Shown: positions 18,359 through 57,834 of the stretch, one piece after another
Position numbering within the stretch: the first letter of the stretch is position 1
Layout: each line of letters begins with the position of its first letter
Source: Deltaproteobacteria bacterium
GTDB taxonomy: Bacteria; Desulfobacterota; Desulfobaccia; Desulfobaccales; 0-14-0-80-60-11
Direction of reading: 5' to 3'
Length of the DNA stretch: 64,000 nt
Assembly (NCBI GenBank): GCA_021813445.1
Contig: JAKAKP010000059.1
Coordinates: 20,002-84,001 of the forward strand
Position numbers and translations under genes: made by a program
Notes under the pieces: model-generated
What the model was told of the DNA's origin: nothing
Databases searched by the model: none
Seen by the model: the letters and a program-made list of their open reading frames with translations, nothing else

Positions 18359-19651
18359 ATGGAAAAAGAATACTTTAAAAAAATCCTAAACTTTGGCGGG
18401 GGAAGTGATCAAATCATTCCCTATGACCAGTTCAACCTTCTTATTCCCGAAGAGGAGGATGATTCTTTAGGTTTTCCGGAAAACTACGAGGTTTTGCCGG
18501 AAGAGGCTTTGGAGGGAGAATTGTCCCCTGGCCCCTTAAGCCTGGGAGAAGAAGCAGAGGAAGATCTGGAGGAAGGCCTGGAAGCTCAGGATATCCCGGA
18601 ACATGAGGGCTTGGTAGCCGCTTACTTCCGGGAAATGCTGCGCTATTCCATCCTCTCCCCGGAAGAAGAACGGAACCTGGGCCGCATCATCAAGGAAGGC
18701 CAGGAATCTATCTTTAACCTGGTCTCCGGTGTTGAGTCCACCCTGGAAGAGATTCGTTACCTGCAAAAGAAGATCAACGACTGGTTTCAAACTCCGGAAA
18801 AGAGCGCCCAGGCTAAGGAAAAGCTCTTCAAGGACATCCATAAAAAGCTGTTTTGGATTGAACGGCATTATCCCGAGGCCACGGAAATCAAAGAACTGGC
18901 CCACAGCATCCAGGCCATGGAATCGGAAGTGACCCAGGCCCGGGATCAGATGATTAAGGCCAATCTGCGCCTGGTGGTGAGCATCGCCAAAAAGTACCTG
19001 CACCGGGGCTTGAGTTTCTCCGATCTCATCCAGGAAGGCAATCTGGGGCTGATGAAGGCCGTGACCCGGTATGACTATACCACCGGTTACCGTTTAAGCA
19101 CCTTTGCGTCCTGGTGGATCCGGCAGACCATCACCCGGGCCATTTACGACAAGACCCGGACCATCCGCATTCCGGTGCATCTGCAGGAGATCCGCAACCG
19201 CTGCTACCGCGCCTTTTATGATCTTTTAAAGGAATTGGGCCGGGAGCCGAATTTAAAAGAAATTGCCGCGCGTTCCGGCGTGCCCGAGGACAAGATCCTC
19301 ATGGTCACCAATCTCTCCGATGAGCTGATCTCTCTGGAGACCCCTGTGGGGGATGAAGGGGACCGGCTGGGGGATTTCATCCGCAATGACAAAGCGGTTT
19401 CCCCCTATGAAGCCATTCTGGAGTCTCAGCTCACGGAAAAGACGGGCACCATTTTGACTACTCTGACCCAACGGGAAGAGAAAATCATGAAGATGCGCTT
19501 CGGCGTCGGCGAAGAAGTGGAGCATACCCTGGAAGAGATCGGGCGGGCCTTTAAGGTCTCCCGGGAGCGCATTCGCCAAATCGAGAAAAAGGCGCTGAAA
19601 CGTCTCAAACACCCCACCCGCAAAGCGGCTCTGGAAGATTTCCTGGAATAG
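18359..19651 (+). CDS. Sigma-70 family RNA polymerase sigma factor (RpoD-like, group 1/2)
   Basis: Acidic N-terminus. Region 2 DLIQEGNLGLMKAVTRYDYTTGYRLSTFASWWIRQTITRAI. Region 4.2 TLEEIGRAFKVSRERIRQIEKKALKRLKHP. Confidence 0.9.
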   Translation: MEKEYFKKILNFGGGSDQIIPYDQFNLLIPEEEDDSLGFPENYEVLPEEALEGELSPGPLSLGEEAEEDLEEGLEAQDIPEHEGLVAAYFREMLRYSILSPEEERNLGRIIKEGQESIFNLVSGVESTLEEIRYLQKKINDWFQTPEKSAQAKEKLFKDIHKKLFWIERHYPEATEIKELAHSIQAMESEVTQARDQMIKANLRLVVSIAKKYLHRGLSFSDLIQEGNLGLMKAVTRYDYTTGYRLSTFASWWIRQTITRAIYDKTRTIRIPVHLQEIRNRCYRAFYDLLKELGREPNLKEIAARSGVPEDKILMVTNLSDELISLETPVGDEGDRLGDFIRNDKAVSPYEAILESQLTEKTGTILTTLTQREEKIMKMRFGVGEEVEHTLEEIGRAFKVSRERIRQIEKKALKRLKHPTRKAALEDFLE

Positions 19652-20097: not shown

Positions 20098-20122
20098 CCT
20101 AAATAAAAGTGAAAATATCAAA

Positions 20123-20151
20123 GGCGGAAGGGTTTCCCTTCCGCCTTTTTT
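20123..20151. terminator. Rho-independent terminator between convergent genes
   Basis: ggcggaaggg tttc ccttccgcc followed by tttttt. Confidence 0.8.
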
Positions 20152-20173: not shown

Positions 20174-21442
20174 TCAGCTGGATTCGATTTGTCTAGTATA
20201 GGTGATGCCATAACGCTTCATCCGGTTCCAAACGGTTACCCGGGAAACCCCCAGGATTTCCGCGGCCACCGATTGGTTGCCCTGAGCCCGGGCCAGGGCA
20301 TCAATGAGCCGCCGTTTCTTGATTTCCTCCCTGCTGAGGGCTATGACGTTCGCGTCTTTGAGGGATTTTTCGCCGTTAAGGATATCAGGCGGCAGATGAT
20401 GCGGCTGAATCAAGGCCTCCTGGCAGGTAACAAAGGCGTATTCGAAGGCGCTTTTGAGTTCGCGCACATTGCCGGGCCAGAGATGCTTCATGAGAACTTC
20501 CAAGGTCAATTTGCTTATGCCCTCTATATCTTTGCCTCTCTTGATGCGCAGCTTCTGAAAGAAGGATTCCGCCAACAAAGGAATGTCCCTGATCCGCTCT
20601 CGCAGTGGCGGCATTTGAATGGGGATGACATTGATCCGAAAGTAGAGGTCTTTTCTGAAGGCTCCGGTTTTAACCAGGCTGGACAGGTCCTTATTCGTTG
20701 CCGAGATGACCCGCACGTCTACCGGGATGGACTTGCTGTCGCCTACGCGTTCGATGACTTTTTCTTCCAACACCCGGAGGAGTTTTACCTGGGTGGAAAG
20801 GGGCAGATCGCCTATCTCATCGAGAAAGATATCGCCGCCCTGAGCCATTTCAAATCTTCCAGCCCGGTCCTTGTAGGCGCCGGTGTAGGCCCCCTTTACA
20901 TGCCCGAAGAGCTCGCTTTCCAGGAGTGATTCCGTCAACGCCGCGCAGTTCACTTTGACATAAGGACCTTTTTTGCGCTCCCCCAACTGGTGGATCGCCC
21001 GGGCTACGAGTTCCTTGCCGGTGCCGCTCTCTCCCAGAATAATCACCGGTGCATCGGATTGGGCCGCATTGTCGATGAGAGAGAACACCTGCTTCATGGA
21101 TGTGGAGGCCCCGATCAAGCCCTGAAAGGCATCTTCAGAGCGCATGTGCCGGCGGAACGCCGCGATCTGCTTGTCCCTCTCAACGATCTCGGTGATATCG
21201 GTGATCGTCTCGACCGCGCCGATCACTCTCCCTTGGCTGTCATGCAGCAGGGAGGCATTCTTGAGCACCGGTACATAGCTGCCGCCTTTCCTCATAATCG
21301 TACAGCGGCGCATATTCATGCAGCCGGTTTTAAAGAGAAGACACCAATGTTCCCCGCATTTTTCCCGAGCCAGACTATAGACACTACAATTTAAAATGGA
21401 GCATTTCTGGCCGATAAGCTCCTGGTGACTATAATCCGTCAT
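20174..21442 (-). CDS. Sigma-54-dependent transcriptional activator (Cys-rich partial PAS + AAA+ + Fis HTH)
   Basis: Walker A GESGTGKELVARAIH. Sigma-54 contact loop ELFGHVKGAYTGA (GAFTGA variant). Walker B IFLDEIGD. C-terminal HTH AAEILGVSRVTVWNRMKRYGI. The N-terminal sensor appears truncated (see findings). Confidence 0.9.
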   Translation of the reverse strand: MTDYSHQELIGQKCSILNCSVYSLAREKCGEHWCLLFKTGCMNMRRCTIMRKGGSYVPVLKNASLLHDSQGRVIGAVETITDITEIVERDKQIAAFRRHMRSEDAFQGLIGASTSMKQVFSLIDNAAQSDAPVIILGESGTGKELVARAIHQLGERKKGPYVKVNCAALTESLLESELFGHVKGAYTGAYKDRAGRFEMAQGGDIFLDEIGDLPLSTQVKLLRVLEEKVIERVGDSKSIPVDVRVISATNKDLSSLVKTGAFRKDLYFRINVIPIQMPPLRERIRDIPLLAESFFQKLRIKRGKDIEGISKLTLEVLMKHLWPGNVRELKSAFEYAFVTCQEALIQPHHLPPDILNGEKSLKDANVIALSREEIKKRRLIDALARAQGNQSVAAEILGVSRVTVWNRMKRYGITYTRQIESS

Positions 21443-21746
21443 ATTTCCAGGGCCTTATTTACTGAAAGGATAGAGCCAGTCGTGTCCACCACTATGATGC
21501 CATCCCGGATGGTATCCACAATGGTCTTTCAATATCTATCAGCCTCTTCTTCAAACATGTTCACCTCATCTTCAGCTTAAATCCTCAATACCTGTTCCAC
21601 AAGAAGTCCAAATTTGAACAATTTGAACATATGTTAAGAAATTAATTAATTTTTTAACAGCATATTTTATGCCAAATAATTCAGACCTTCAGGCTAAGCC
21701 AAAATCCGCTAATCAAGACCATCATACACTGTTTCATTTTGCAATA

Positions 21747-21780
21747 GGTGTTAAAAATAAATTTTAGCATTTTTAACACC
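21747..21780. promoter_or_regulatory. Perfect 12-bp inverted repeat, candidate enhancer (UAS) for the adjacent sigma-54 activator
   Basis: GGTGTTAAAAAT-aaattttagc-ATTTTTAACACC, about 75-110 bp upstream of the -24/-12 promoter, in the divergent intergenic region. Confidence 0.5.
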
Positions 21781-21855
21781 ATCTTTCTTAAGCCTCCCAG
21801 TCAGCAAACAGAAAATATCCTAAAATAACAGATACATGTGGACCTTATTCCCTGG

Positions 21856-21870
21856 TGGCACTAAATTTGC
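21856..21870 (+). promoter_or_regulatory. Sigma-54 (-24/-12) promoter, TGGCAC-N5-TTGC
   Basis: tggcac taaat ttgc matches the TGGCAC-N5-TTGC consensus exactly. It is divergent from a sigma-54 activator gene and lies 44 nt upstream of the proposed TTG start with RBS GAAGGAG. Confidence 0.75.
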
Positions 21871-21913
21871 CCATGCTTGGGCGGGATTGAACAAAAGAAG
21901 GAGCCTAAAGGCG

Positions 21914-22153
21914 TTGAAGCCCAAAGCCAATTATGTCCTTGATTTTAGCCAAACTATCACCCCCGTTGCTCTGCTCAAAATGACGCAGGTGATGCGGGAG
22001 ATGAATAAGGATGAGGTTTTGGAAATTATCACGCGAGATACGGTAGCCCGGACGGACGTCTTCAAATTGATTCCCACGGCGTCCTGCGAAGTGATCGACA
22101 TGGAGTTTAACAAGGACGCCAATTTTTTTCGAATTCGGGTGAAAAGAGTTTGA
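21914..22153 (+). CDS. TusA/SirA-fold protein lacking the conserved cysteine
   Basis: YVLDFSQTITPVALLKMTQVMREMNKDEVLEIITRD...FFRIRVKR aligns by eye to E. coli TusA (LDALGLRCPEPVMMVRK...), with Thr (21959-21961) in place of the catalytic Cys. Start moved to TTG 21914 because the sigma-54 promoter lies inside the longer track ORF (21836). Confidence 0.6.
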   Translation: MKPKANYVLDFSQTITPVALLKMTQVMREMNKDEVLEIITRDTVARTDVFKLIPTASCEVIDMEFNKDANFFRIRVKRV

Positions 22154-22191
22154 AGCCCGAAGCGGGCGGAGACCAAAGGAAGAGAGAGCCA

Positions 22192-23064
22192 ATGAGTTTT
22201 CAAGAACGATTATCGACCGGTGAGTTTGTGATCCTGGCAGAGATGAACACTCCCAAGGGCGTTGACACCTCGCCGCTGGTTTCCCTGGCGCGCCGGCTCA
22301 AAGGCCGGGTTGATGCGGTCACCGTGCCGGATATGGACAATGGCATCATGCGGATGAGCGCCCTGGCGGGTGCGGTGATTCTCAACCAGCAGGGAATTGA
22401 GCCGATTCTCCATGTCTATTGCCGGGACCGGAACCGGATGGCCTTACAGGGCGATATTTTGACGGCCTATGCCCTGGGCATCCAAAATCTGGTGGTGGTG
22501 GACAGCGAAGACATCGCCAATTGCGATCATCAAGAGACCATGCCCGTAAATGACCTGGATGAGCTGGGGCTCATAGGTGCAATTCGTTCCCTGCAGCAAG
22601 GGGTGGATCTGGCCGGTCTGGAGCTCAATGGCGCCCCGAAATTCGTGGTTGGCTGCACCATGGCTCAATATGCGGATGAACAGGCTCTGGAGCGCGAGCT
22701 TGAGGCCACCAGAAAGAAGGTGGAAGGAGGAGCGGAATTCGTAGTGACCCCGGCGGTTTACGACTTGAAGCTCTTTTCCTCGTTCATGGACCGGGCCGAG
22801 AGCTTGGGAGTGCCGATCATTGCCACGGTATTTCTGCTTAAATCCGTGGGCTCGGCCCGCTACATCGCCAACACCGAACCGGCTTCCGGAATTTCGGAAG
22901 AATTGATCCGCAGGATTCGGAAGGCCTCCGACCGGGAAATGGAATGCCTGCGTCTGGCCGGCGAGACTGCTGCGGCTCTCAAGGAACTGGCGCAGGGAGT
23001 CCGGTTCGTGACCCTGGGCTGGGAGCACCGGCTGCCGGCAATCCTGGACTATGCCGGTCTTTAA
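22192..23064 (+). CDS. Methylenetetrahydrofolate reductase family protein (MetF paralog)
   Basis: MSFQERLSTGEFVILAEMNTPKG...PILHVYCRDRNRMALQGDILTAYALGIQNLVVV is clearly paralogous to the downstream MetF (PILQMVTRDRNRLAMQSDILGAYSHGI...). Confidence 0.8.
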   Translation: MSFQERLSTGEFVILAEMNTPKGVDTSPLVSLARRLKGRVDAVTVPDMDNGIMRMSALAGAVILNQQGIEPILHVYCRDRNRMALQGDILTAYALGIQNLVVVDSEDIANCDHQETMPVNDLDELGLIGAIRSLQQGVDLAGLELNGAPKFVVGCTMAQYADEQALERELEATRKKVEGGAEFVVTPAVYDLKLFSSFMDRAESLGVPIIATVFLLKSVGSARYIANTEPASGISEELIRRIRKASDREMECLRLAGETAAALKELAQGVRFVTLGWEHRLPAILDYAGL

Positions 23065-23111
23065 TGCCGTCGCGCGGATATCGAACTCTTACAGGGAAGA
23101 ACAGGATACTC

Positions 23112-26100
23112 ATGTCAGAACAAAAAAGATTCCAACCAAGTAATAGGGTGCTGGTGGTCGGCGGGGGCATGGGTGGCATCAGGGCCGCTCTGGATCTGGC
23201 GGAAACCGGCCGGGACGTGGTGTTGGTCGATAAAGGCTTTGCCATCGGCGGCCTCATGACCCAACTCGATCGGACCTTTCCCACCAATAATTGCGATCTC
23301 TGCACCCTGTCACCCCATTTATCGGCCAGCGGCCGCAAACTGCACATCCAGCTCATGGCAATGACAAAGTTGTGCGGCCTTGACGGGGAAGCAGGCCATT
23401 TCAAGGCTACCCTCACCACTGCGCCCCGGTACATCGACCTGATGAAATGCACGGGGTGCGGCGAGTGTTTTCGCAAATTTCCCGAATCGGTGCGCTTCAT
23501 CCCCGGTCTGGATCATCGGGCGCCCACCTGTATGCGGTATCCCCAGGGGACCCCGTTCGCTTACTCCATTATCAAGGATGAGCGGACCGATTTTGCCGGT
23601 CTGGCCGGCGTTTGCCCGGCCGGGGCGATACTACCCGACGACGCCGAAAAGGTGCAGGAAATCGAAATTGGCTCCATCATCCTGGCGCCCGGGGCCGAGG
23701 TGTTCAATCCTCAAATCCTGGACTCTTACCGTTATAGCAGGCATCCGAACGTGGTCACCAGCCTGGAATACGAGCGGATTCTCTCTGCGTCTGGGCCGAC
23801 CAAGGGGGACCTCGTGCGCCCTTCCGACGGGAAAAGGCCCCGCAAGATCGCCTGGATTCAATGCGTCGGCTCCCGGGGCATCCAGGAGGGCTCGGTGCCT
23901 TATTGTTCGAGCGCCTGCTGCATGTTTGCCCTGAAAGAAGCCATCGTCACCCGGGAGCGCTTCTATGAGGATGTGGAGACGACCCTGTTCTACATGGACA
24001 TGCGCACCTCGGGGAAAGATTACGAGCTCTACCTCCAGCGGGCTATCAACGATTATGGCATCCGCCTGGTGCGGGCCCGTCCCCATAGCGTGGAATCAGT
24101 CATGGAGGCCGGGACCCCTGCGGGCGACCTCCTGATCAGATACCTGGCGCAGGGCGAGGACTCCTTGAAGACAGAAAACTTCGATATGGTGGTTCTCGCC
24201 ACCGGCTTCCGGGTGTCCCCGGAAGCAAAGGATCTGGCCGCCAAAATCGGCGTCGATCTTAATGAACACGGCTTTGCCCGCGCGGGCAGCTTCGATCCCG
24301 TGGCCACCTCCAGGCCCGGAATTTATGTCTGCGGCATGTTCGAAAGTCCCAAGGACATTCCCGACACCATGGTCCAGGCCAGCGCCGCGGCTGCCGCGGC
24401 TGCCAAGGATCTCACGCCGCTGCGGGTCGTGGCGCAAGCCAGAGAGGAACTGCCGCCGGAGCGGGAGGTAGCGGGGGAAGTGCCGCGGATCGGGGTTTTT
24501 GTGTGCGACTGCGGCCTCAATATCGGCGGCGTGGTCAACGTAGAGGAGATCGCCGCCAGTGCGGCGTCGCTGCCCCAGGTGGTGGTGGCCGAAACCATAG
24601 GCCATGGCTGCAGCCGCGAATCTCTGGAGCATATCCAGGCCACGATCTGGTCGAAGCGTCTCAACCGGGTGGTGGTGGGAGCCTGCTCGCCTCGGACGCA
24701 TGAAGGACTCTTCCAGGAAGCCGTGCGCCGGGCGGGCTTGAACAAGTACCTGGTGGAAATCGCCAATCTGAGGGACCAGGATACCTGGGTCCATCGGGAC
24801 CTGCCCTCCGCGGCCGCGGCCAAGGCCAAGGACCTGATGCGCATGGCCGTGGCCTCGGTGCGCCTGGCCCGCCCGCTCGCAGACCAGACCCTGCCGATGA
24901 ACAAGGATGTCCTGGTGGTGGGCGGCGGCATTGCCGGGATGACGGCTTCGCTGCGGCTTGCAGACCTAGGATACAAGGTCCATCTGGTGGAACGCCTGAA
25001 AGAACTCGGCGGAGTAGCAAAGCAGATGCGCCGGACCCTTGAGGGCGAAGACGTGCGGGCCTTTGTCGATGATCTCATCAAGAGAACGGAAGGGCACGAC
25101 CGCATTAAGGTGTGGAAGCAGGCCATGGTGGTGGATCACTCGGGCATGGCCGGGATGTTCCGGACGGGCCTGCAGGTGGGACCCCAGATGTTCTACCGGG
25201 AAATCCGGCATGGCATCACGATTCTGGCGACGGGAGCACTCCCCCATCGCCCGGATGAGTACTATTGGGGCCGGCATCGGGCGGTGCGGACGCAACTCGA
25301 ACTGGAGGCCTTCCTGGAAGACCACTCTGAAGATGTCCAGGTCTGGGACAAGGTCGTCATGATCCAATGCGTCGGCTCCCGGGTCCCGGAAAATCCCAAC
25401 TGTTCCCGGGTATGCTGCCAGGCGGCAGTCAAGAATGCCCTAAAGATCCTGGAGATCAACCCCAAAGCCCAGATCGTCGTGCTTTACCGCGATATGCGCA
25501 CGCCGGGGTTCGAGGAGGATTATTATCGGCAGGCAAGGGAGAAGGGGGTTATTTTTGCCGCCTATAACCCGGAAGCCCGACCGGTGGTCGAACCGGAGGG
25601 CGGCAAAGTGGCCGTGCGCTTCACCGACCCGATTTTGGGGCGGGAATTAACGGTTTCGGCGGATTGTCTGGCCCTGAGCACCGGGATGATAGCCGACGAG
25701 GAGTCAACCGAAGATCTCGGCATGATCTTTCACCTGCCCAGAACCCCGGATGGCTATTTTCTCGAGGACCATATCAAGCTCAGACCCATCGATCTGCCCA
25801 TCCCCGGGTTTTTTGTGGCTGGCACCGCGCACGCGCCCAAGACCATCCGCGAGACCATCGCCCAGGCGCAGGCCGCCGCAGGCCGGGCCCAGACTTTCCT
25901 GGCCCGGGACAGCATCAACCTGGGGGCGGCTGTGGCCCGGGTGTATGGGGAGTTGTGCGCCGCCTGCCTTATATGCGTGAGGTCCTGCCCCTTCGGGGTG
26001 CCGTTCATCAACGAGGAAGGATACTCCGAGATCGATCCTTCCAAGTGCCACGGCTGCGGCGTCTGTGCCTCGGAATGTCCTGCCAAGGCGATTCAACTCA

Positions 26101-26162
26101 GGCAATACGAGGATGATCATATCATGGCGAAAATAGACGGACTTATGGAAGGGATCAGGTGA
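23112..26162 (+). CDS. Large HdrA-like flavoprotein/Fe-S oxidoreductase (two FAD/NAD Rossmann modules + 2x[4Fe-4S] ferredoxin domain)
   Basis: VLVVGGGMGGIRAALDLAE and VLVVGGGIAGMTASLRLAD dinucleotide folds. HdrA-type Cys motifs (FPTNNCDLCT, CTGCGEC). C-terminal CAACLICVRSCP...CHGCGVCASECP. Start trimmed to ATG 23112. Confidence 0.85.
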   Translation: MSEQKRFQPSNRVLVVGGGMGGIRAALDLAETGRDVVLVDKGFAIGGLMTQLDRTFPTNNCDLCTLSPHLSASGRKLHIQLMAMTKLCGLDGEAGHFKATLTTAPRYIDLMKCTGCGECFRKFPESVRFIPGLDHRAPTCMRYPQGTPFAYSIIKDERTDFAGLAGVCPAGAILPDDAEKVQEIEIGSIILAPGAEVFNPQILDSYRYSRHPNVVTSLEYERILSASGPTKGDLVRPSDGKRPRKIAWIQCVGSRGIQEGSVPYCSSACCMFALKEAIVTRERFYEDVETTLFYMDMRTSGKDYELYLQRAINDYGIRLVRARPHSVESVMEAGTPAGDLLIRYLAQGEDSLKTENFDMVVLATGFRVSPEAKDLAAKIGVDLNEHGFARAGSFDPVATSRPGIYVCGMFESPKDIPDTMVQASAAAAAAAKDLTPLRVVAQAREELPPEREVAGEVPRIGVFVCDCGLNIGGVVNVEEIAASAASLPQVVVAETIGHGCSRESLEHIQATIWSKRLNRVVVGACSPRTHEGLFQEAVRRAGLNKYLVEIANLRDQDTWVHRDLPSAAAAKAKDLMRMAVASVRLARPLADQTLPMNKDVLVVGGGIAGMTASLRLADLGYKVHLVERLKELGGVAKQMRRTLEGEDVRAFVDDLIKRTEGHDRIKVWKQAMVVDHSGMAGMFRTGLQVGPQMFYREIRHGITILATGALPHRPDEYYWGRHRAVRTQLELEAFLEDHSEDVQVWDKVVMIQCVGSRVPENPNCSRVCCQAAVKNALKILEINPKAQIVVLYRDMRTPGFEEDYYRQAREKGVIFAAYNPEARPVVEPEGGKVAVRFTDPILGRELTVSADCLALSTGMIADEESTEDLGMIFHLPRTPDGYFLEDHIKLRPIDLPIPGFFVAGTAHAPKTIRETIAQAQAAAGRAQTFLARDSINLGAAVARVYGELCAACLICVRSCPFGVPFINEEGYSEIDPSKCHGCGVCASECPAKAIQLRQYEDDHIMAKIDGLMEGIR

Positions 26163-26599
26163 TGGAAAATTTCGAACCGGTAATTTTGGCTTTCTGTTGC
26201 CATTACTGTGCTTACACCGCGGCGGACATGGCGGGCAGCATGAGGCTGCGTTATCCGCCCAATGTGAAAATCATCCGGGTGCCTTGCTCGGGTAAGGTGG
26301 ATGCGATCCACATCATGAAATCCCTGGAAAAAGGGGCCGACGGGGTTTATGTGGCCGGCTGCCTGGAAGGGGATTGCCACTTCAAGAACGGCAATGGCAG
26401 GGCAACTCACCGGGTGGAATACCTGAAGAAACTCCTTGATGAAATCGGCATCGGCGGGGAACGGGTGGAAATGTTCGCCATGTCCGCAGGTATGGGCGAG
26501 CGCTTTGCGCAAACCGCCACGGATTTCACTGAGAAGATTCGGCAACTCGGGCCTAATCCCGTTAAGGCCGCGCCTCAAAATCAGCGGGCCGCAGGTTGA
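26159..26599 (+). CDS. mvhD: Methyl-viologen-reducing hydrogenase delta subunit-like protein (MvhD)
   Basis: ILAFCCHYCAYTAADMAG...IRVPCSGKVD...VAGCLEGDCHF, the MvhD/FlpD signature. Confidence 0.9.
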   Translation: MMENFEPVILAFCCHYCAYTAADMAGSMRLRYPPNVKIIRVPCSGKVDAIHIMKSLEKGADGVYVAGCLEGDCHFKNGNGRATHRVEYLKKLLDEIGIGGERVEMFAMSAGMGERFAQTATDFTEKIRQLGPNPVKAAPQNQRAAG

Positions 26600-26627
26600 C
26601 TCGCCAGGAACAGGAGACTGAACAGAG

Positions 26628-27296
26628 ATGATTACTGCCGAACGAAAACCTATAGAAGAGCTGATCCAGAGCGTCAAGCCGTATCGCAGCATTCTGCTGG
26701 CCGGCTGTAACGAGTGCGTCACGGTCTGCGCCGCGGGCGGCCGCAAAGAGGTGGGGGTGCTGGCTTCGGCGCTGAAGATGCACTTTCTGAAAGCGGGCAA
26801 GCCCTTCGAAATTCAGGAGATAACGCTGGAACGCCAGTGTGATCCCGAATATGTCGAGCAGCTGGCGTCGAACCTCGACCAGGTGGACGCGGTGCTGTCC
26901 ATGGCCTGCGGCTGCGGGGTCCAGGAAGTTGCCCGGCGCTTTCATAACAAACCGGTCTTCCCGGCCCTGAACACCAAGTTCATGGGCGCCTCCGAGCGCC
27001 AGGGCGTCTGGAGCGAGCGCTGCCAGGGCTGTGGCGACTGTGTCTTGGGGTACACAGGCGGTATCTGTCCCGTGGCCCGGTGCTCGAAGCAATTGTTTAA
27101 CGGCCCCTGTGGCGGCTCCAGCAACGGCAAGTGCGAAGTGGACCCCAATGTCGACTGTGCCTGGCAGCTCATCTGGGACCGCCTCAAAGCCCTGGGGATG
27201 ACGGAAAGGTACGAGGAGAACCTGCCGGCCAAAGACTGGCGTCCTGCAGGGGGCGCAGGGCCGCGCAGAATTATCAGAGAGGATATGGCGCTATGA
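26628..27296 (+). CDS. metV: Methylene-THF reductase-associated Fe-S/zinc-ribbon subunit (MetV-like)
   Basis: GCNECVTVCAAGG...CQGCGDCVLGYTGGICPVARCSKQLFNGPCGGSSNGKCEVD. ATGA overlap with metF. Confidence 0.8.
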   Translation: MITAERKPIEELIQSVKPYRSILLAGCNECVTVCAAGGRKEVGVLASALKMHFLKAGKPFEIQEITLERQCDPEYVEQLASNLDQVDAVLSMACGCGVQEVARRFHNKPVFPALNTKFMGASERQGVWSERCQGCGDCVLGYTGGICPVARCSKQLFNGPCGGSSNGKCEVDPNVDCAWQLIWDRLKALGMTERYEENLPAKDWRPAGGAGPRRIIREDMAL

Positions 27297-28255
27297 AAAC
27301 GGCAAGCACTCTGGAAAACATACTGGCATCGGGAGAACTGGCAGTCACCTCCGAGTGCGGGCCGCCGCGGGGTGCCTTGCCGCAGAAGGTGCGGGAAAAG
27401 GCGGAACTGCTCCGGGGCTGTGTGGACGGGGTCAATGTCACCGACAACCAGACGGCCATGGTGCGCATGTCCAGCCTGGCCGCCTGTATCCTGCTGAAGC
27501 AGATGGGGCTCAATCCCATCCTCCAGATGGTCACCCGGGACCGCAACCGCCTGGCGATGCAGAGCGACATCCTGGGGGCATACTCCCACGGGATCGATAC
27601 CATGCTCTGCCTTTCCGGCGATCATCCCCGCTTCGGCGACCATGCTATGGCCGCCACGGTGCATGATATCGACTCCGTCCAGATGATCCGGATGGTGAAG
27701 GACATGCGGGATGAAGGGCTGTTCCAGGGCGGGGAAAAAATTGACGGCCCTCCCAAAATGTTTATCGGCGCCGCGGCCAACCCCTTCGCGGACCCCTTTG
27801 AGCTGCGAGTTTCCCGGTTGGCGAAAAAAGTAAAGGCCGGGGTGGATTTCATCCAAACTCAGTGCATTTACAACGTCGATAAATTCGAAAAATGGCTGCA
27901 AGGGGTGCGGGACCGCGGCCTGCATCAACAGGTCCACATCCTGGCCGGCATTACACCCATGAAATCGGTGGGCATGGCCCGCTACATGAAAAACAAGGTG
28001 CCGGGGATGGATGTGCCCGATGAGGTGGTGAAGCGCATGGGCGGGGTGCCCAAGGACAAGCAGGCTGAGGAGGGCATCAAAATTTGCCTGGAAACCATCG
28101 AGCGCCTGAAAGGCGTGGAGGGTGTCCGGGGATTTCATCTCATGGCGATTGAGTGGGAGCAGAAGGTCCCCGAGATAGTAGAAAGGGCGGGGCTTCTGCC
28201 GAGACCTGACGGTTTAAATGTGGGTGTCCAAAATGTACGAGGAGGCAAGTCATGA
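27293..28255 (+). CDS. metF: Methylenetetrahydrofolate reductase (MetF, MetV-associated type)
   Basis: VTSECGPPRG...VNVTDNQTAMVRMSSLA...MVTRDRNRLAMQSD...FIQTQCIYN. Start at ATG 27293 overlapping the metV stop. Confidence 0.9.
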   Translation: MKTASTLENILASGELAVTSECGPPRGALPQKVREKAELLRGCVDGVNVTDNQTAMVRMSSLAACILLKQMGLNPILQMVTRDRNRLAMQSDILGAYSHGIDTMLCLSGDHPRFGDHAMAATVHDIDSVQMIRMVKDMRDEGLFQGGEKIDGPPKMFIGAAANPFADPFELRVSRLAKKVKAGVDFIQTQCIYNVDKFEKWLQGVRDRGLHQQVHILAGITPMKSVGMARYMKNKVPGMDVPDEVVKRMGGVPKDKQAEEGIKICLETIERLKGVEGVRGFHLMAIEWEQKVPEIVERAGLLPRPDGLNVGVQNVRGGKS

Positions 28256-28641
28256 GTAACAAGGAACTTATTTTGGTAGTGGACGATGACCCCGATCTGG
28301 TGGATATGGTGGCCACAAAGCTTGAGGCCAATAACTACAGAACTGCAAAGGCTTACGACGGGTTTCAGGCCTGGGAGAAAATCAAGCAGGAAAAGCCTGC
28401 CATGGTGCTCCTGGATGTCATGATGCCGAACAAGGACGGCTATGTGACCTGCGAAGAGATCAAGAAGGACCCAAACTTTAAAGATATTGCCGTGGTGCTG
28501 CTCACTGCGGTGGTGGATAACCTGCCGACGACCACGTACACGCATCACTCAGGTCGCACGACCCCGGCGGATGACTTCATTCCGAAGCCCATAGACCTGG
28601 ATAAGCTTATGGGCATTGTCCAGGATAATTTGGGACGCTGA
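28252..28641 (+). CDS. Stand-alone response regulator receiver protein (CheY-like)
   Basis: LVVDDDPDLVDM...VLLDVMMPNKDGY...FIPKPID. Confidence 0.85.
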   Translation: MSNKELILVVDDDPDLVDMVATKLEANNYRTAKAYDGFQAWEKIKQEKPAMVLLDVMMPNKDGYVTCEEIKKDPNFKDIAVVLLTAVVDNLPTTTYTHHSGRTTPADDFIPKPIDLDKLMGIVQDNLGR

Positions 28642-28687: not shown

Positions 28688-30280
28688 TTGTCTTCACAGT
28701 CTCCTAGATCGAAGCCGATTGAGCCAAGGTTATCTATGGCCAGAGGAGCCGATGAAAAAAGCACCGGGATCGATTGGAGGTCGAGGGTATTCGATTCCCT
28801 ATCATTGCCCGCCCTGATCTTGGAGGCGAACCGGGTGGTTCTTGATGCGAATAAGAGCTTTTTGATGCAATACGGCATTAGTAAAGATGGGATTATCGGC
28901 CAGACCTGCCATGAATTCTTCTACCAGTCTGAAGATCCCTGTCCATATGAAACCTGCCCTCTTTCCAAAGTGCTGAAAGAAAAGACCGGACAGACGATCC
29001 TTAGATGCGTCAAGATTCCAGGCAGCAAAGAAAAATGGGAGGACCGAATCTTCTCGCCCATCCTGGATGATGCCGGCAAGGTTCAGTATATCATCGAAAA
29101 AATTCGAGACGTCACTCATATCAAGAGGCTGGAAAGAGAGCTTTCCGGAATCAAGGTATTTATGGAGAAGTTTGTCCAAAGCTCGATGAGCGCTATCGTG
29201 GCCGCTGACCGGAGAGGCAGGATCCTGCTGATGAACCCGGCTGCAGAAGAGCTCACCGGTTATACCTTCCCGGAGGCCCGGAGACGGGTCACGGTTCGAG
29301 ACCTTTACCCGCCGGGCCAGGCGAAAGAGATCATGGCAAAACTCAGGAGCGAAGCTTTTGGCGGAAAAGGCAGGTTACCGTGCAGCCAAACCATCCTGGT
29401 AAACGCCCAAGGGGAAGAGATCCCCGTGGAGTTAACCGCCGCCATAATCTATGAGGGTGAAAAAGAAGTGGCCACCATGGGCATCTTCAACGACCTCAGG
29501 GAGAAAATCGCTCAGGAGGAGAAGATTAAAGAGGTTTTGATGAGAGCGGCCAAGGCCGAGAAAATGGCTTCATTGGGTCAACTTGCCGCTGGAGTCGCCC
29601 ATGAGATCAATAACCCTTTAACTGGCATCCTTCTTTATGGGGGCCTGCTTTTGGAAGATTTACGCAGCGATCATCCCTGGCATCAGGATTTGCAGTCTAT
29701 CATTGATGATGCCAATCAATGCCGCAATATTGTCAAAAGCCTCCTTGCTTATAGCCGCCAGACCAGCGCCAATAAAGAGATCATAGACCTTAATGATTTG
29801 GTGGAGCAAAGCTTGAGCCTTATTCGGGATCAGAGTCTGTTTATCAATATCGAGGTAGTTAAAAAGCTGTCTGATGAAAAGATGCTGATCAGAGTGGACC
29901 GGAGCCAGCTCAATCAGGTGATTATTAATTTAGTCATCAATGCTGTTGACGCCATGGAACGAAAAGGAACCTTGACCCTCAAGACTTATTGGCATCTCCG
30001 GAAGAAGAAGGGGGCGGGAAAGAAAGAGGCGGCAGGTTTCGCTTACCTGGAAGTTGCCGATACCGGCTGTGGCATATCTGCAGAAAATCTTTCCCGGATA
30101 TTTGACCCTTTCTTCACGACCAAAGAACTGGGAAAGGGGACCGGCTTAGGTCTAAGCACCGCTTACGGCATTATCCATGAAAATGGCGGCACTATCTGGG
30201 TAAAAGAAACCAGTCCAAAGGGGAGTACCTTCATAGTGGAACTTCCCCTTTGCCAGGATGCAAACGGACATGAACTTTAG
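28688..30280 (+). CDS. PAS-PAS sensor histidine kinase (complete HisKA + HATPase_c)
   Basis: Cys-rich first PAS (GQTCHEFFYQSEDPCPYETCP). H-box GVAHEINNPLTGI, N-box VIINLVINAVDA, G1 DTGCGIS, G2 GKGTGLGLS. Start is uncertain (TTG 28688 or ATG 28736). Confidence 0.85.
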   Translation: MSSQSPRSKPIEPRLSMARGADEKSTGIDWRSRVFDSLSLPALILEANRVVLDANKSFLMQYGISKDGIIGQTCHEFFYQSEDPCPYETCPLSKVLKEKTGQTILRCVKIPGSKEKWEDRIFSPILDDAGKVQYIIEKIRDVTHIKRLERELSGIKVFMEKFVQSSMSAIVAADRRGRILLMNPAAEELTGYTFPEARRRVTVRDLYPPGQAKEIMAKLRSEAFGGKGRLPCSQTILVNAQGEEIPVELTAAIIYEGEKEVATMGIFNDLREKIAQEEKIKEVLMRAAKAEKMASLGQLAAGVAHEINNPLTGILLYGGLLLEDLRSDHPWHQDLQSIIDDANQCRNIVKSLLAYSRQTSANKEIIDLNDLVEQSLSLIRDQSLFINIEVVKKLSDEKMLIRVDRSQLNQVIINLVINAVDAMERKGTLTLKTYWHLRKKKGAGKKEAAGFAYLEVADTGCGISAENLSRIFDPFFTTKELGKGTGLGLSTAYGIIHENGGTIWVKETSPKGSTFIVELPLCQDANGHEL

Positions 30281-31619
30281 CAAACGGTCGTACAGCAATC
30301 AAGAAATCGGGCCGGGAAACCTGGTGCAGAAAATGGCGTTAATAGCCCATTCCTCACCCTCCATTCTGGTCATCGATGATGAAGAACATGTGCGGCAAGG
30401 CTGCCGCAAGGTACTCGTCCGGGATGGATATGAGGTGACCATCGCTGAATCCGGCGAAATCGGCCTCAGCCTTATTGAGCACCGGCATTTTGACATCATT
30501 CTTTTAGACCTGATGATGCCGAGCCTTTCCGGGTTCGATGTCCTGGCCCTGGTCAAGGCGCTGCATCCTGACACCATCATCATTGTCATCAGCGGTTACG
30601 CCACCTTTGAAAATTCCGTAGAAGTCATGAAACGGGGAGCCTTTGATTTCATCCCCAAACCTTTCTCTCCCGAACAATTACGCCTCCTTACCAGAAAAGC
30701 CATAGAGTATCTGAGAACCATGCAAGATATTGCCGATGAAAAGTCGCGGATGCGCGCGCTCATTAATCGGCTGACTGACGGGGTTATGGCCACTGATGCC
30801 GCCAAACGGATATTGCTGGCAAATCCGGCATTTTTGCGACTGGCCGGCTCCCGGGAAGTGCGAATTGTCGGCTGCCAAGTGGGCGAAGTCATCCAAAATA
30901 CCCATTTGGAAGAGATGATAGATCGGGCGCTGGCTTTGACCGGAACTGAACTGGCGGAACTGGTGGAAGAAATATGTCTTGACTCCGAGGCGGGACAGCC
31001 GCAGACAATTATAAGTGCCCGCTGTATTCCTTATATTGACCGGGCTGGCCGTAACATCGGCACCATCACGGTGCTCCATGACATCACGGCTTTGAAGCGC
31101 CTGGACCGCATCAAGTCAGAATTCGTCGCCATGGTCTCCCACGAGATAAGAAGTCCGCTGAATTCGGTCCTGGCCCAGATGAAAATCATCCTGGACGGCC
31201 TGGCTGGCGAGGTCACCCCGAAGCAACAGGAAATATTGAGCCGGGCCTCGGCCAAGGTCAATAGCCTGATAGCCCTCTCTTCAGAACTCCTGGACCTGGC
31301 CCGGATTGAGTCCGGTCTGATCAGCCAGGAAAGAGAACAACTCAACCTTGCCAATATCCTGGAGGATCAGGTGGCTTTTCATAATCCGGCGGCCCAAGCC
31401 AAGGGGATTTCCCTGGTGCTGGAGCCTTTGCCAAGACTTGAGCCGGTATTTGCCGACCGGGGCACCATGGAAGAGGTGTTCTCCAACCTCATCGCTAACG
31501 CCATCAACTATACGCCCGAGGGCGGCAGGGTGACCCTTTCCGCCGCCATGGAGAGCGGTTACCTCCGGGCCTCTGTGGCCGATAATGGCATCGGCATGGC
31601 CCCCGAAGACCTGGGCCGC
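30258..31619 (+). pseudogene. Hybrid response-regulator/PAS/histidine kinase truncated within the ATPase domain (fused in frame to the phage lysozyme)
   Basis: REC (ILVIDDEEH...ILLDLMMPSLSGF...FIPKPF), PAS, H-box VSHEIRSPLNSV, N-box NLIANAINYTPEGG, G1 DNGIGMAPEDLGR. The expected F-box and G2 (GxGLGL) are missing, and the reading frame continues into a lysozyme domain. Confidence 0.7.
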
Positions 31620-32075
31620 ATGCAGGAAATCATCCTGGCCTCGGCCCAAGAGTATCAATGGCCGCCGAAGATCATTGCCGGGATTATCAGCAGGGAATCC
31701 CGCTTTGGGCTGCTTCTGGACGGTGAGGGCAAGGGCGATGCCGGGCACGGGCACGGCCTGATGCAGATCGACGACCGGAGCTTCGGCGGCTGGCTGGCGG
31801 CAAACGACTGGCAGGACCCGGCCGTCAACATCCAAATGGGCGTCAAAATCCTCACTGACAAATATAACTACCTGGCCGGCCGCGGTCTCCTGGACGGCCT
31901 CAGCGATACGCAAGCCCAGCAGGCCGCGGTCGCGGCTTACAACTGCGGCGAGGGGAACGTCGCCAAGGTGCTCCAGGCCGGGGACGATATTGACAGCCGC
32001 ACCGCGGGCCGGAATTATTCGGCGGACGTCTTGGCCCGGGCCGAGCAATTCAGGGAGGTCTTCGCCGGGACATGA
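31620..32075 (+). CDS. Endolysin, goose-type lysozyme / lytic transglycosylase (GH23-like)
   Basis: IIAGIISRESRFG...GDAGHGHGLMQIDDRS...AAYNCGEGNV resembles the g-type lysozyme/SLT catalytic region. The own ATG at 31620 lies inside the fused ORF 30258-32075. Confidence 0.8.
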   Translation: MQEIILASAQEYQWPPKIIAGIISRESRFGLLLDGEGKGDAGHGHGLMQIDDRSFGGWLAANDWQDPAVNIQMGVKILTDKYNYLAGRGLLDGLSDTQAQQAAVAAYNCGEGNVAKVLQAGDDIDSRTAGRNYSADVLARAEQFREVFAGT

Positions 32076-56298: not shown

Positions 56299-56622
56299 AT
56301 GAGATTGGAAATGATGGGGAGCGGACCCTGTGCGGACTTTGCTATTTCCGGCGCGACCGTTTCGGTCGGAGAGGCGAGCGTGGATTGTGCCGCCATGCAG
56401 AGCGACCATGAGGTAGTGGCGGATATTTGCTCCGACGGCCAGGGGGACTTTGTGGCCGGGGCCGCCGAAGGCAGGGCCTATGTCCTGTCCTGCATCATCC
56501 CCCCGCAGCGCTTCGAGATGGTGCAGGACGGGGAAGATGAGAACGGCCCGATCATGAAGCCGGTGCCCATTCCCCTGAACCCCAGTGAGGTCGTGGTCAA
56601 GGTATGGCCCTATGTCGGGTAG
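56299..56622 (+). CDS. Hypothetical protein (possible fibre accessory/chaperone)
   Basis: 107 aa between the fibre genes. No family recognised. Confidence 0.35.
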   Translation: MRLEMMGSGPCADFAISGATVSVGEASVDCAAMQSDHEVVADICSDGQGDFVAGAAEGRAYVLSCIIPPQRFEMVQDGEDENGPIMKPVPIPLNPSEVVVKVWPYVG

Positions 56623-56670
56623 GGGCGAACTTTAAGACCGATTTTTAGCCAAACTTCAGGAGGAAGAAAA

Positions 56671-57768: not shown

Positions 57769-57834
57769 GAATCTGAAATCTGATCTCTTGATTATCTGAA
57801 TGGCGTAGCGCATCGGAGACAGGGGGATTAAAGA

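Follow-up and report, generated by a model that had tools for sequence, protein, structure and literature searches.

A probable Hdr-type methylene-THF oxidoreductase locus of Thermodesulfobacteriota, with a sigma-54 promoter and an apparent loss of its CCG module beside a Mu-like prophage

Our analysis of a 64-kb stretch of DNA (here, the window) suggests that, on balance, its central gene cluster encodes the Thermodesulfobacteriota form of the Hdr-type (class IV) methylene-/methyl-THF oxidoreductase, regulated by sigma-54 and an EBP, and that the ancestral CCG module was lost here by a deletion at the side of a prophage. In the arrangement that we propose from the sequence, MetF-MetV would be the folate-converting unit, probably connected via MvhD to HdrA, a pseudo-heterodimer in a single chain with an electron-bifurcation signature at its first flavin. 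The ancestral cluster appears to encode also a thiol/disulfide-type CCG module, usually a soluble HdrD-type protein (an HdrC-HdrB fusion) related to DsrK, HmcF, and TmcB, in which one conserved position is Cys or selenocysteine. This module may be the high-potential end of the complex, reducing a protein or small-molecule disulfide, while the low-potential partner would exchange electrons with the ferredoxin domains of HdrA. Oxidized DsrC is a candidate acceptor, by family resemblance at scores below the NCBIfam cut-offs. With a potential of about -200 mV, methyl-THF is ill suited to donate electrons for bifurcation to ferredoxin, and the direction and stoichiometry of electron flow are uncertain for this reason.

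Six linked genes (those of a TusA-like protein, MetF2, HdrA, MvhD, MetV, and MetF) lie on the plus strand, at or within a few bases of where the earlier note had placed them. The TusA-fold protein (21914 to 22153; 79 aa, TTG start) matches PF01206 with an E value of 1e-8, above the gathering score; an NCBIfam search gave no match for it. It shares with the TusA sulfur-carrier family the fold and the LDxRG...P...LLK framework but differs in the persulfide-carrying Cys of the CPxP motif, which is Thr in the window protein and Thr or Ser in 35 of 35 cluster orthologues, so that sulfur transfer by the known TusA mechanism is excluded. The protein had been called Cys-less, which is correct for this catalytic residue but not for the whole chain, in which one other Cys is still present. 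MetF2 (22192 to 23064; 290 aa) is an MTHFR-fold paralog (PF02219 over its full length, E value 8.7e-24) that is 33% identical to the MetF of the window and has an altered active site: of 71 orthologues, 62 retain Glu28 (E. coli numbering), 65 have Glu in place of Asp120, and 70 have Pro in place of Gln183. The D120E and Q183P changes are also seen in an alignment to human MTHFR (6FCX). In MetF itself, the canonical catalytic subunit (27293 to 28255; PF02219, E value 3.9e-41), each of the three residues is kept in 75 of 75 orthologues. The metF gene overlaps by 4 nt the stop codon of metV, which encodes the iron-sulfur subunit of a MetVF-type MTHFR (26628 to 27296; PF12225, E value 1.1e-38), and the start codon of mvhD, which encodes an MvhD-type [2Fe-2S] protein (26159 to 26599; PF02662, E value 1.6e-52; NCBIfam VhuD, 5e-51), overlaps the hdrA stop codon.

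The HdrA-like flavo-iron-sulfur protein (23112 to 26162, plus strand), recognized by Pfam and by matches to HdrA in the PDB with E values down to 1e-156, has 1016 aa and two dinucleotide-binding modules (FAD/Rossmann from about aa 10 and aa 599), as had been described. Module 1 (aa 7 to 435) is TrxR-like with an inserted one-cluster ferredoxin domain, aa 450 to 580 are the HdrA N-terminal [4Fe-4S] domain, module 2 (aa 596 to 935) is again TrxR-like, and the C terminus is a 2x[4Fe-4S] ferredoxin domain. Mapped on the methanogen HdrA (5ODC), C61/C64 and E221/K275 of module 1 correspond to Cys194/197 and E356/K409. Both modules and MvhD are homologous to the methanogen HdrABC-MvhAGD complex (5ODC, 8RVU; E values about 1e-150), but the window HdrA joins two HdrA halves in a single chain, each half supplying what the other lacks (Cys197 is present in module 1, which has no N-terminal domain, and module 2 is the reverse), and the cluster has no hydrogenase, MetFV taking the place of MvhAG.

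The kinship with the acetogen MetFV-HdrABC-MvhD complexes, which had been pointed out earlier, holds. In Sporomusa ovata and Moorella thermoacetica, the methylene-THF reductase of the Hdr type (class IV) is HdrCBA-MvhD-MetVF (Mock et al. 2014; Kremp et al. 2022, PMC9430772). Because the S. ovata HdrA (942 aa; PMC9430772) and the fused HdrA of M. thermoacetica (PMC9012536) have the same extra TrxR-like module, and the window protein maps onto that build, a two-module HdrA is no departure from described systems. MetF, MetV, MvhD, and an enlarged HdrA are all shared, the order within HdrA is the same (N-terminal TrxR-like flavin module, MvhD-like N-terminal domain, second TrxR module, and C-terminal ferredoxin domain), and the full E/K bifurcation signature occurs at only one flavin site in S. 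ovata as in the window. The window cluster differs in lacking separate hdrC and hdrB genes (relatives have a fused HdrD-type gene, missing here), in retaining the inserted one-cluster ferredoxin domain in HdrA module 1, in its additional genes (those for a MetF paralog, a TusA-fold protein, a receiver, and two kinases), and in its sigma-54/EBP control. Furthermore, the hosts of the window-type cluster are sulfate reducers and syntrophs, in which the step is expected to run oxidatively as well.

Clusters of this type occur widely among the sulfate-reducing and syntrophic Thermodesulfobacteriota. A relative is encoded in 412 species genomes, and the best 80 loci all belong to Thermodesulfobacteriota. 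Among 82 loci compared (Desulfobaccales, Syntrophobacterales, Desulfobacterales, Desulfobulbales, and Desulfatiglandales), the gene order is conserved: 67 of 71 loci have MetF2, and 57 of 59 have the genes for the receiver and the kinases. The TusA-like gene is present in 33 of 66. MetF2 and the TusA-like protein, which lacks the active-site Cys, are conserved, and we found no description of either. Both are probably accessory subunits, and MetF2 is probably not a standard MTHFR. In the cultured Desulfobacca acetoxidans (MetF, AEB08698; PMC6085437), hdrA-mvhD-metV-metF are in the same order as in the window (identities of 69% for HdrA, 80% for MvhD, 81% for MetV, and 86% for MetF), but this locus has no TusA-like, MetF2, EBP, two-component, or linked CCG genes.

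Sigma-54 control of the cluster, as had been proposed, is well supported by sequence conservation. The -24/-12 promoter TGGCACTAAATTTGC (21856 to 21870, plus strand) is the sole exact match to TGGCAC-N5-TTGC in the whole window, whereas sites with up to one mismatch (4 in 64 kb) are not above chance. Of 68 related loci, 52 have an equivalent element, where chance predicts 0.15 per locus. In several orders it keeps a constant distance of 45 to 87 nt from the TusA-like start codon downstream, and it typically lies 55 to 65 nt before the first gene. With perfect 12-bp arms, the palindrome GGTGTTAAAAAT-N10-ATTTTTAACACC (21747 to 21780), also reported before, lies 109 nt 5' of the -24 element and is a candidate proximal activator-binding site; the window holds 3 perfect inverted repeats of at least 12 bp, including this one, compared with 0.24 expected by chance. 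A candidate distal site, TGTTAAGAAATTAA/TTAATTTTTTAACA (21632 to 21659), has 14-bp arms with 1 mismatch. TGTTAA-N14-20-TTAACA occurs in just 2 copies in 64 kb, both between the EBP and TusA-like genes. The related motif GTGTTAAA...TTTAACAC is found 5' of the promoter in loci L008, L017, L025, L032, L044, L058, L077, L078, and L084, and TGTTAA...TTAACA is upstream of the promoter in every locus with an adjacent orthologous EBP gene. The divergently encoded PAS-domain activator would drive the sigma-54 promoter via these candidate sites.

The divergent EBP gene is indeed present on the minus strand, but its earlier description omits damage to the 5' end. The remaining 422-aa ORF (20174 to 21442) comprises a partial PAS domain, an AAA+ domain for interaction with sigma-54 that has the GAYTGA loop, and a Fis-type HTH (Sigma54_activat, E value 4.7e-72; AAA_lid_14; HTH_8; PAS_9, profile positions 23 to 103 only) and is 74% identical over aa 40 to 458 to an intact 462-aa orthologue (L007). 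The damaged part (21443 to 21557, minus strand) begins with an ATG at 21557 preceded by a GAGGTG ribosome-binding site and has an in-frame TGA at 21530-21528, where orthologues have Trp10, and a 1-nt deletion near codon 39, immediately upstream of 21442. Its translation is MFEEEADRY*KTIVDTIRDG...KALEI*, with a frame shift after it, and that of the orthologue is MFEEDLDRYWKTVVSTIRDG...MEMMSGYSREELIGQKC. Both lesions are common to four of four independent assemblies (L001 to L004); over the 601 nt around them, three of these assemblies agree fully, and L003 differs by one SNP. The two mutations cut away 39 codons at the start of the gene.

The operon had been thought to end at 28255; it does not. 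A gene for a stand-alone response-regulator receiver protein (28252 to 28641, plus strand; PF00072, E value 6e-22) shares 4 nt with metF at the stop codon of the latter and is in the same position in nearly all related loci. It is followed, on the same strand, by genes for a PAS-PAS histidine kinase (28736 to 30280; PAS_4, HisKA, and HATPase_c; start taken from the L001 gene call) and for a hybrid receiver-PAS histidine kinase (30270 to 31622) that breaks off in the ATPase domain, past the DNGIG (G1) box. The transcript probably runs on through all three.

No HdrB, HdrC, or HdrD was found in the 64-kb window by tblastn with four CCG-protein or HdrC-like queries, even at an E value of 1e-3. The absence of HdrBC that the earlier note had stressed is thus true of the window, but it is not a property of the system. 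In all four nearest relatives (L008, L009, L010, and L017), the HdrAs of which are 83 to 85% identical to that of the window, an HdrD-type gene lies directly 3' of the last kinase gene, in one of them with hdrC-hdrB additionally after it, and the gene has the same position in Syntrophobacteraceae. About 10 further loci have either a membrane NarI-like/HdrC-like protein with an HdrB-like protein or a soluble HdrC and HdrB pair, and 28 of 46 full-view loci encode a CCG protein within 10 kb. Like DsrK, HmcF, and TmcB (cytoplasmic CCG subunits of sulfate-respiration membrane complexes) and the HdrD of Methanosarcina and Archaeoglobus, the HdrD-type protein has an HdrC-like 2x[4Fe-4S] N terminus (8e-11) and an HdrB-like CCG C terminus. 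In NCBIfam it matches HmcF, TmcB, and DsrK best, all below the cut-offs and so far below (HmcF, 145 versus 750 bits) that it is a separate subfamily. It differs from these proteins in being soluble with no adjacent membrane subunit, in having only one Pfam-recognized CCG domain, and in the alternation of Cys and Sec at one conserved site: in other orders it is a selenoprotein, with TGA at one site aligned with Cys in 22 of 22 cases and a covarying hairpin after it.

Comparison with these relatives indicates that the missing HdrBC is a local loss. Synteny ends at 31622, inside the last kinase gene, and late genes of a Mu-like prophage come next. The truncated kinase is 78% identical to its L010 orthologue up to ...DNGIGMAPEDLGR, with no similarity beyond, and its HATPase_c match covers profile positions 2 to 56 of 111 only. 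Fused to it in frame is the lytic transglycosylase (SLT) domain of a phage lysin (31623 to 32075, plus strand; PF01464, E value 7e-12; PHROG endolysin matches). Because relatives carry a CCG gene at this place and homology stops so abruptly, the absence of HdrBC/HdrD points to a secondary deletion beside the prophage, which, with the ancestral state deduced from relatives, would have removed the kinase 3' end and hdrD. Such an in-frame fusion is unusual, and three ENA contigs of the same population stop inside metV or metF with SNP-dense ends, a sign of assembly instability nearby; the junction might then be an assembly chimera that joins the operon to a phage contig of other origin, and the real genome would have an intact kinase gene and an intact hdrD. 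We consider this very improbable, given that NCBI contig DAHZBB010000003.1 (L001) has the same junction and differs from the window at 7 positions over 15.9 kb, so that the two are not copies of one assembly, and that neither NCBI nor ENA sources yielded an HdrD orthologue of more than 82% identity, which would be expected if the organism had hdrD.

It is also conceivable, if unlikely, that the complex works without any HdrB/HdrC-type subunit, MetFV-HdrA-MvhD having ferredoxin or a different soluble carrier as its sole partner in electron exchange; MetF2 would perhaps be a second substrate site and the CCG genes near the relatives' clusters separate or optional. The CCG module may not be an obligate subunit, since 18 of 46 full-view loci and the four-gene locus of D. 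acetoxidans (L005) have no linked CCG gene. Where present, the gene varies in position (after the kinases, between the TusA-like and MetF2 genes, on the opposite strand, or unlinked), and in this population the structural genes are intact, with mostly synonymous SNPs, despite the loss of hdrD. However, the four nearest and many more distant relatives keep a CCG gene in the cluster, and the recruitment of three different CCG architectures to one cluster type points to a functional need. S. ovata HdrB physically interacts with MetF, HdrA, and MvhD (PMC9430772). Moreover, HdrD orthologues exist unlinked to the cluster, as in Desulforhabdus amnigena, so absence from the locus is not absence from the genome, and since the window is only 64 kb of this one, hdrD or hdrBC may lie outside it. 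Three independent peripheral lesions fixed in four assemblies (EBP nonsense codon and frameshift, truncated kinase, and missing hdrD) would also fit a locus that is decaying in this lineage and is no longer expressed or used, with an activator pseudogene and structural genes not yet hit. This seems quite unlikely: all six structural genes have their full length, as do those of the receiver and the first kinase, SNPs in MvhD and MetV across the four assemblies are 13 synonymous to 2 nonsynonymous (MvhD, 7:1; MetV, 6:1), and the 422-aa EBP ORF keeps its AAA+ and HTH domains with no further lesions. NtrC-family EBPs without the N-terminal sensor domain (e.g., DctD and XylR) are often constitutively active.

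The Mu-like prophage remnant (31623 to 58254, plus strand) contains lysis, packaging, head, and contractile-tail genes, including those for TerL (phrog_38, 6e-60), Portal_Mu (1e-93), Mu F, sheath, tape measure, GPD, and P2_I, as well as CHAP and HTH_23 genes (L001 gene table); no transposase, integrase, or repressor was found in it. It also has a cassette resembling a diversity-generating retroelement (DGR), with an FGE-sulfatase-fold protein and a reverse-transcriptase fragment.

Six tightly spaced genes occupy the plus strand of the window from 21.9 to 28.3 kb. They encode a TusA-fold protein of 79 amino acids (aa) (21914-22153; PF01206, E = 1e-8), a second MetF paralog with the MTHFR fold, MetF2 (22192-23064; 290 aa; PF02219, E = 8.7e-24), an HdrA-like protein of 1016 aa (23112-26162; solved HdrA structures matched at 1e-156), MvhD (26159-26599; PF02662, E = 2e-52), MetV (26628-27296; PF12225, E = 1e-38; no solved structure matched in the PDB), and MetF (27293-28255; PF02219, E = 4e-41). 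The adjacent metV and metF genes overlap by 4 nt and share the cluster with the genes of HdrA and MvhD. MetF, MetV, MvhD, and an enlarged HdrA are also the components shared with the Hdr-type MTHFR of acetogens (MetFV-HdrABC-MvhD), and the kinship proposed from the sequence alone in an earlier note is thus upheld. That note had ended the operon at 28255. The six genes stand, but the operon runs farther, into receiver and kinase genes: the gene of a receiver-only response regulator starts within the end of metF (4-nt overlap at the stop codon) and is followed by two PAS histidine-kinase genes. No intrinsic terminators above chance were found within the operon.

The HdrA protein was aligned to solved HdrA structures. 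It consists of a TrxR-like flavin module (module 1, aa 7 to 435), an N-terminal-type [4Fe-4S] domain of HdrA lying between both flavin modules (aa 450 to 580), a second TrxR-like flavin module (module 2, aa 596 to 935), and a C-terminal two-cluster ferredoxin domain. In module 1, C61 and C64 are equivalent to Cys194 and Cys197 (Methanothermococcus thermolithotrophicus numbering), and E221 and K275 correspond to the bifurcation signature Glu356/Lys409 of the same protein; all four residues are invariant in 12 HdrA homologues. Module 2 has K774 and a Glu at the Glu356 position (Asp in most homologues) and lacks Cys197. The inserted ferredoxin domain of module 1 retains cysteines for one cluster (C113, C116, C119, and C168-P); a two-cluster inserted domain is found in neither half, as the second CxxCxxC of module 1 is lost and module 2 has no insert. 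The earlier note had pointed out the two dinucleotide-binding modules of HdrA and suggested that the acceptor side may differ from described systems. The two-module HdrA itself is no departure, because the Sporomusa ovata HdrA has the same enlarged build with a second TrxR-like flavin module (Kremp et al., PMC9430772) and fused HdrAs, including that of Moorella, show the same complementary single-chain pseudo-heterodimer pattern (Chadwick et al., PMC9012536). The HdrL of Desulfobacterium autotrophicum, a fusion of HdrA with an NfnB-like glutamate synthase carrying an NADH site (PMC2702500), was also considered and ruled out as a counterpart, as the window protein is composed of two HdrA halves.

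The window HdrA has thousands of homologues, the best 120 with identities of 65% or more; the named sources among these 120 are Desulfobaccales, Syntrophobacteraceae, Desulfatiglandales, and Desulfobacca acetoxidans. Identical HdrA proteins are encoded in an NCBI metagenome-assembled contig (GCA_027404775.1) and in three ENA contigs. In a scan of one genome per species, 412 genomes contained a relative, and the best 80 loci of these were compared, each component being counted only among loci in which the relevant side is visible. The common order is the activator gene on the opposite strand, followed by the genes of the TusA-like protein, MetF2, HdrA, MvhD, MetV, MetF, the receiver, a PAS kinase, and a hybrid receiver-PAS kinase. 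Synteny across Desulfobacterota, a check suggested in the earlier note, is therefore conserved: MetF2 is present in 67 of 71 loci and the receiver and kinase genes are present in 57 of 59. The TusA-like gene (33/66) is found mainly where the orthologous activator gene adjoins. Unlike the window, D. acetoxidans has the four core genes alone. About 30 related loci without a TusA-like gene (e.g., L054, L059, L063, L018, and L027) have a sigma-54 element 140 to 300 nt upstream of MetF2; an HMM search of that space for diverged TusA-like open reading frames (ORFs) in these loci found one degenerate case, in L027. In the others, the space may hold a leader or a small ORF that has escaped recognition.

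MetF2 is 33% identical to MetF and matches the PF02219 profile over positions 2 to 286 of 287. It departs from MetF in the set of catalytic and folate-binding residues of MTHFR, Glu28, Asp120, and Gln183 (Escherichia coli numbering; the same MetF2 substitutions are seen against human MTHFR). Glu28 is kept in 62 of the 71 MetF2 orthologues, while Asp120 is replaced by Glu in 65 and Gln183 by Pro in 70; in the co-encoded MetF, all three residues are kept in 75 of 75 orthologues. Because the substitutions at positions 120 and 183 are maintained across orthologues, MetF2 is, judged by its residues, a conserved and selected subfamily that is unlikely to function as a standard MTHFR. The TusA-like protein (35.4 bits against a PF01206 cut-off of 28.6) retains the family match and fold of TusA sulfur carriers but not the catalytic Cys of their CPxP motif, the window protein having Thr at this site (SQTITPVALLK). 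The persulfide-carrying Cys is replaced by Thr or Ser in 35 of 35 orthologues, which rules out the known TusA mechanism. The term "Cys-less" used in the earlier note holds for the catalytic residue; other cysteines are not all missing.

Those cluster members leave the CCG (HdrB/HdrD-type) partner to be accounted for. A Syntrophobacteraceae locus, L007, encodes a 441-aa protein with ferredoxin and CCG domains after the last kinase gene, and a gene of this type follows the kinase in the four nearest relatives of the window (L008, L009, L010, and L017) and in five further loci. The encoded proteins are 79 to 82% identical to that of L007, and the four Desulfobaccales copies are 91 to 100% identical among themselves. 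The N terminus matches HdrC (E = 8e-11) and the C terminus matches the CCG domain of HdrB, by which the protein is classed as an HdrD-type fusion; among curated families it comes closest to HmcF, TmcB, and DsrK, with scores far under the cut-off in each case. In L009, the HdrD-type gene is followed by hdrC and hdrB as separate genes and by another hdrA.

Desulfobacterales and Desulfobulbales have an HdrD version that is 32% identical and is usually encoded between the TusA-like gene and MetF2; in a few loci its gene lies downstream of the kinases or on the other strand. All 22 genes of this version (L032, L044 to L046, L049, L058, L062, L065, L069, L070, L075 to L078, L081 to L087, and L014; e.g., L044:7635-8951) contain one in-frame TGA at the same site, which aligns with a Cys of the other type and gives the motif E-U-GH. 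About 20 nt after the TGA lies a hairpin (CAGUCCG-GGC-CGGACUG) with compensatory changes. By these gene features, the TGA-bearing HdrD-type CCG proteins are selenoproteins.

About ten loci have another CCG module, consisting either of a membrane NarI-like/HdrC-like protein and an HdrB-like protein or of soluble HdrC and HdrB, as in L009. In some Desulfobacterales and Syntrophobacterales loci, a membrane protein of 580 aa, in which a NarI/DsrM-like domain is joined to a pair of 2x[4Fe-4S] domains, adjoins the cluster together with an HdrB-like protein that has two CCG domains (L050:20308-22959, L061:18945-21589, L074:5574-8356, L083:18412-21185, and L034:3129-5632), hinting at a quinone-linked version of the system. 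In loci without HdrD, the search for an alternative conserved downstream partner returned this membrane HdrE/C-like and HdrB-like pair alone, in a handful of loci. Overall, a CCG protein is encoded within 10 kb in 28 of the 46 loci seen in full. In Desulforhabdus amnigena the CCG module is encoded away from the cluster; in loci without a linked gene, including that of Desulfobacca, it may likewise be supplied from elsewhere or be dispensable.

Neither HdrB, HdrC, nor an HdrD-type CCG protein is encoded in the 64-kb window, whereas described Hdr-type MTHFRs have HdrB and HdrC encoded with the cluster and the relatives have fused HdrD or HdrC and HdrB. The absence pointed out in the earlier note is thus real for the window but does not describe the design of the system, since a CCG protein is encoded in 28 of the 46 loci seen in full and in all four nearest relatives. 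The hybrid receiver-PAS kinase indicates how the gene might have been lost. Its sequence follows that of the L010 orthologue (78% identity) as far as ...DNGIGMAPEDLGR, partway through the ATPase domain; it is cut after the G1 (DNGIG) box and runs on in frame into a phage lytic-transglycosylase domain, forming a single ORF of 601 aa (30270-32075). Similarity to all four close relatives stops at 31622, and a Mu-like prophage remnant occupies 31623-58254, with genes of a lysin, a CHAP peptidase, a large terminase, a Mu-type portal, Mu F, sheath, tape measure, and baseplate; the GC content is 61% there and 57% in the operon. No transposase, integrase, or repressor gene was found in the remnant. 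The simplest reading is that a deletion beside the prophage took the prophage early region, the 3' end of the kinase gene, and hdrD together. An assembly chimera is unlikely because the junction at 31622 also exists in an NCBI contig (L001, DAHZBB010000003.1) that differs from the window at 7 positions. When the L010 HdrD protein was used as query, no match exceeded 89% identity, and none from NCBI or ENA sources exceeded 82%; one ENA member (P0256) comes from another sample and another organism. This is a weak sign that the window population as a whole may be without an hdrD gene. The window copy is a damaged example of a widespread system, and it cautions that the absence of a gene from a single genome window can be a recent deletion and not a design feature.

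The structural genes are intact, and the few SNPs in MvhD and MetV among the four assemblies are mostly synonymous (13 synonymous and 2 nonsynonymous). The three ENA contigs (L002 to L004) all end within metV or metF (window 26792-28056), with SNPs dense near the ends (27 synonymous and 15 nonsynonymous in MetF), a pattern suggesting that strains were co-assembled or that those samples contain a second metVF copy. The tail-fiber end of the prophage carries a cassette resembling a diversity-generating retroelement (DGR) (56299-58254), comprising a PHROG-8734 small protein (56299-56622), a protein of the FGE-sulfatase/C-type-lectin fold (56671-57768), and a fragment of 139 aa (57835-58254) with matches to the reverse transcriptase and Avd of DGRs. 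The reverse transcriptase appears to be truncated, and no template/variable repeats of at least 40 bp were found for the cassette.

The regulatory features named in the earlier note, namely, a -24/-12 promoter, a palindrome, and a divergent enhancer-binding protein gene, were all recovered by motif scans and domain searches. TGGCAC-N5-TTGC (21856-21870) is the sole exact match in 64 kb. Of 68 related loci, 52 have such an element, with up to two mismatches, in the 700 nt preceding their first gene (0.15 per locus expected), usually 55 to 65 nt ahead of the TusA-like start codon. Three sites in the window, where 0.24 would be expected, have a perfect palindrome of this kind, among them the 12-bp one at 21747-21780; together with 21632-21659, this one forms the sole pair of TGTTAA-N14-20-TTAACA copies in 64 kb, which are candidate activator sites, and repeats of this kind upstream of the -24/-12 element are common to loci of several orders. 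The activator gene (20174-21442, minus strand; Sigma54_activat PF00158, E = 5e-72) encodes an AAA+ domain whose loop reads GAYTGA (GAFTGA type) in the ORF translation. Because the element and the upstream repeats are conserved across loci, sigma-54 control by the neighboring activator is well supported at the level of sequence. No rpoN gene was found among the window proteins scanned, the sole sigma factor seen being a sigma-70-family gene (18359-19651).

The activator gene of the window is itself damaged. The orthologous activator starts with MFEEDLDRYWKTVV..., while the window reads MFEEEADRY-TGA-KTIV..., with TGA in place of Trp10 (within 21443-21557, minus strand); 29 codons later, at about codon 39, 1 nt is deleted. 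Both lesions are fixed in four independent assemblies of the population, and over the 601 nt around them, three of the four agree throughout and L003 has one SNP. The remaining ORF of 422 aa still encodes the AAA+ and DNA-binding domains and part of the PAS domain. The gene may be a pseudogene, or it may yield a protein with a truncated sensor. The PAS domain (aa 14 to 47) contains several cysteines (CSILNCSVYSLAREKCGEHWCLLFKTGCMNMRRC), and the segment may be a redox- or metal-sensing site; in a Syntrophobacteraceae orthologue (CSILNCSIYKMAREKGGKFWCVLFKTGTLNQRRC), 3 of these 7 cysteines are replaced. Between the convergent 3' ends of the activator gene and a DksA/TraR-like gene lies a perfect 12- to 13-bp inverted repeat (AAAGGCGGAAGGG..., 20120-20148), probably a bidirectional terminator.

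In the reversed Wood-Ljungdahl pathway of acetate-oxidizing sulfate reducers and syntrophs, the methyl-THF/methylene-THF step is the energetic bottleneck. To our knowledge, no electron partner of Hdr-linked methylene-THF reductases has been identified since 2014, when the Moorella complex was proposed. Here, one tightly regulated cluster, common to a large part of Thermodesulfobacteriota, has MetFV-HdrA-MvhD traveling with a DsrK-like CCG protein (often a selenoprotein), a MetF with an altered active site, and a TusA-fold protein without the catalytic Cys. These three are concrete candidates for the missing partner, and several cultured carriers exist, among them Desulfofustis glycolicus DSM 9705, Desulforhabdus sp. 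TSK, Desulfocicer vacuolatum DSM 3385, and Desulfoferrobacter suflitae. Hdr genes beside metF in Desulfobacterota have already been noted (PMC10553843, PMC2702500); no description of the extended cluster (TusA with MetF and HdrA, or MetFV with HdrD) was found in the literature outside subscription journals. We therefore regard the system as a new and widespread variation on the MetFV-Hdr theme, with the HdrA build and the core already known.

By analogy with methanogen Hdr-Mvh and acetogen complexes, we hypothesize that the subunits form one complex. MetF-MetV would exchange two electrons with methyl-/methylene-THF, MvhD would connect this unit to HdrA, and the bifurcating flavin of HdrA module 1 would couple a low-potential partner, reached via the ferredoxin domains, to a thiol/disulfide site of high potential in the HdrD-type subunit. 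Oxidized DsrC would be the most attractive candidate substrate of that subunit because of its resemblance to DsrK, HmcF, and TmcB. The direction in which electrons flow is likewise hypothetical, as are the parts played by MetF2 and the TusA-like protein. A bolder proposal, which we consider improbable as a whole, is an undescribed enzyme joining C1 and sulfur metabolism, in which methyl-THF oxidation at MetFV is coupled via the HdrA flavin to reduction of a DsrC-like disulfide or trisulfide at the Cys/Sec site of HdrD, with MetF2 and the TusA-fold protein forming a second substrate- or partner-docking site. If true, it would name the long-sought "second acceptor" of MetFV-Hdr complexes, and the window strain would be a natural variant without hdrD, with a truncated kinase, and without a sensor.

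Two further features were seen among the related loci. In 39 of them, of the Desulfobacterales type, two tandem proteins of about 170 aa are encoded between the receiver and first kinase genes (e.g., L032:15538-16621), with a match to the ACT domain that is weak and below the cut-off (E = 1e-4 to 6e-4); neither the window nor its near relatives encode them. Several Syntrophobacteraceae loci have a paralogous cluster on the opposite strand just upstream (L007:1-6258, L020:1-6234, L052:1-5684, L042:17-3456, and L050:2775-6856), which encodes MvhD and two more HdrA proteins, one of them a second two-module HdrA of about 1027 aa (45% identical).
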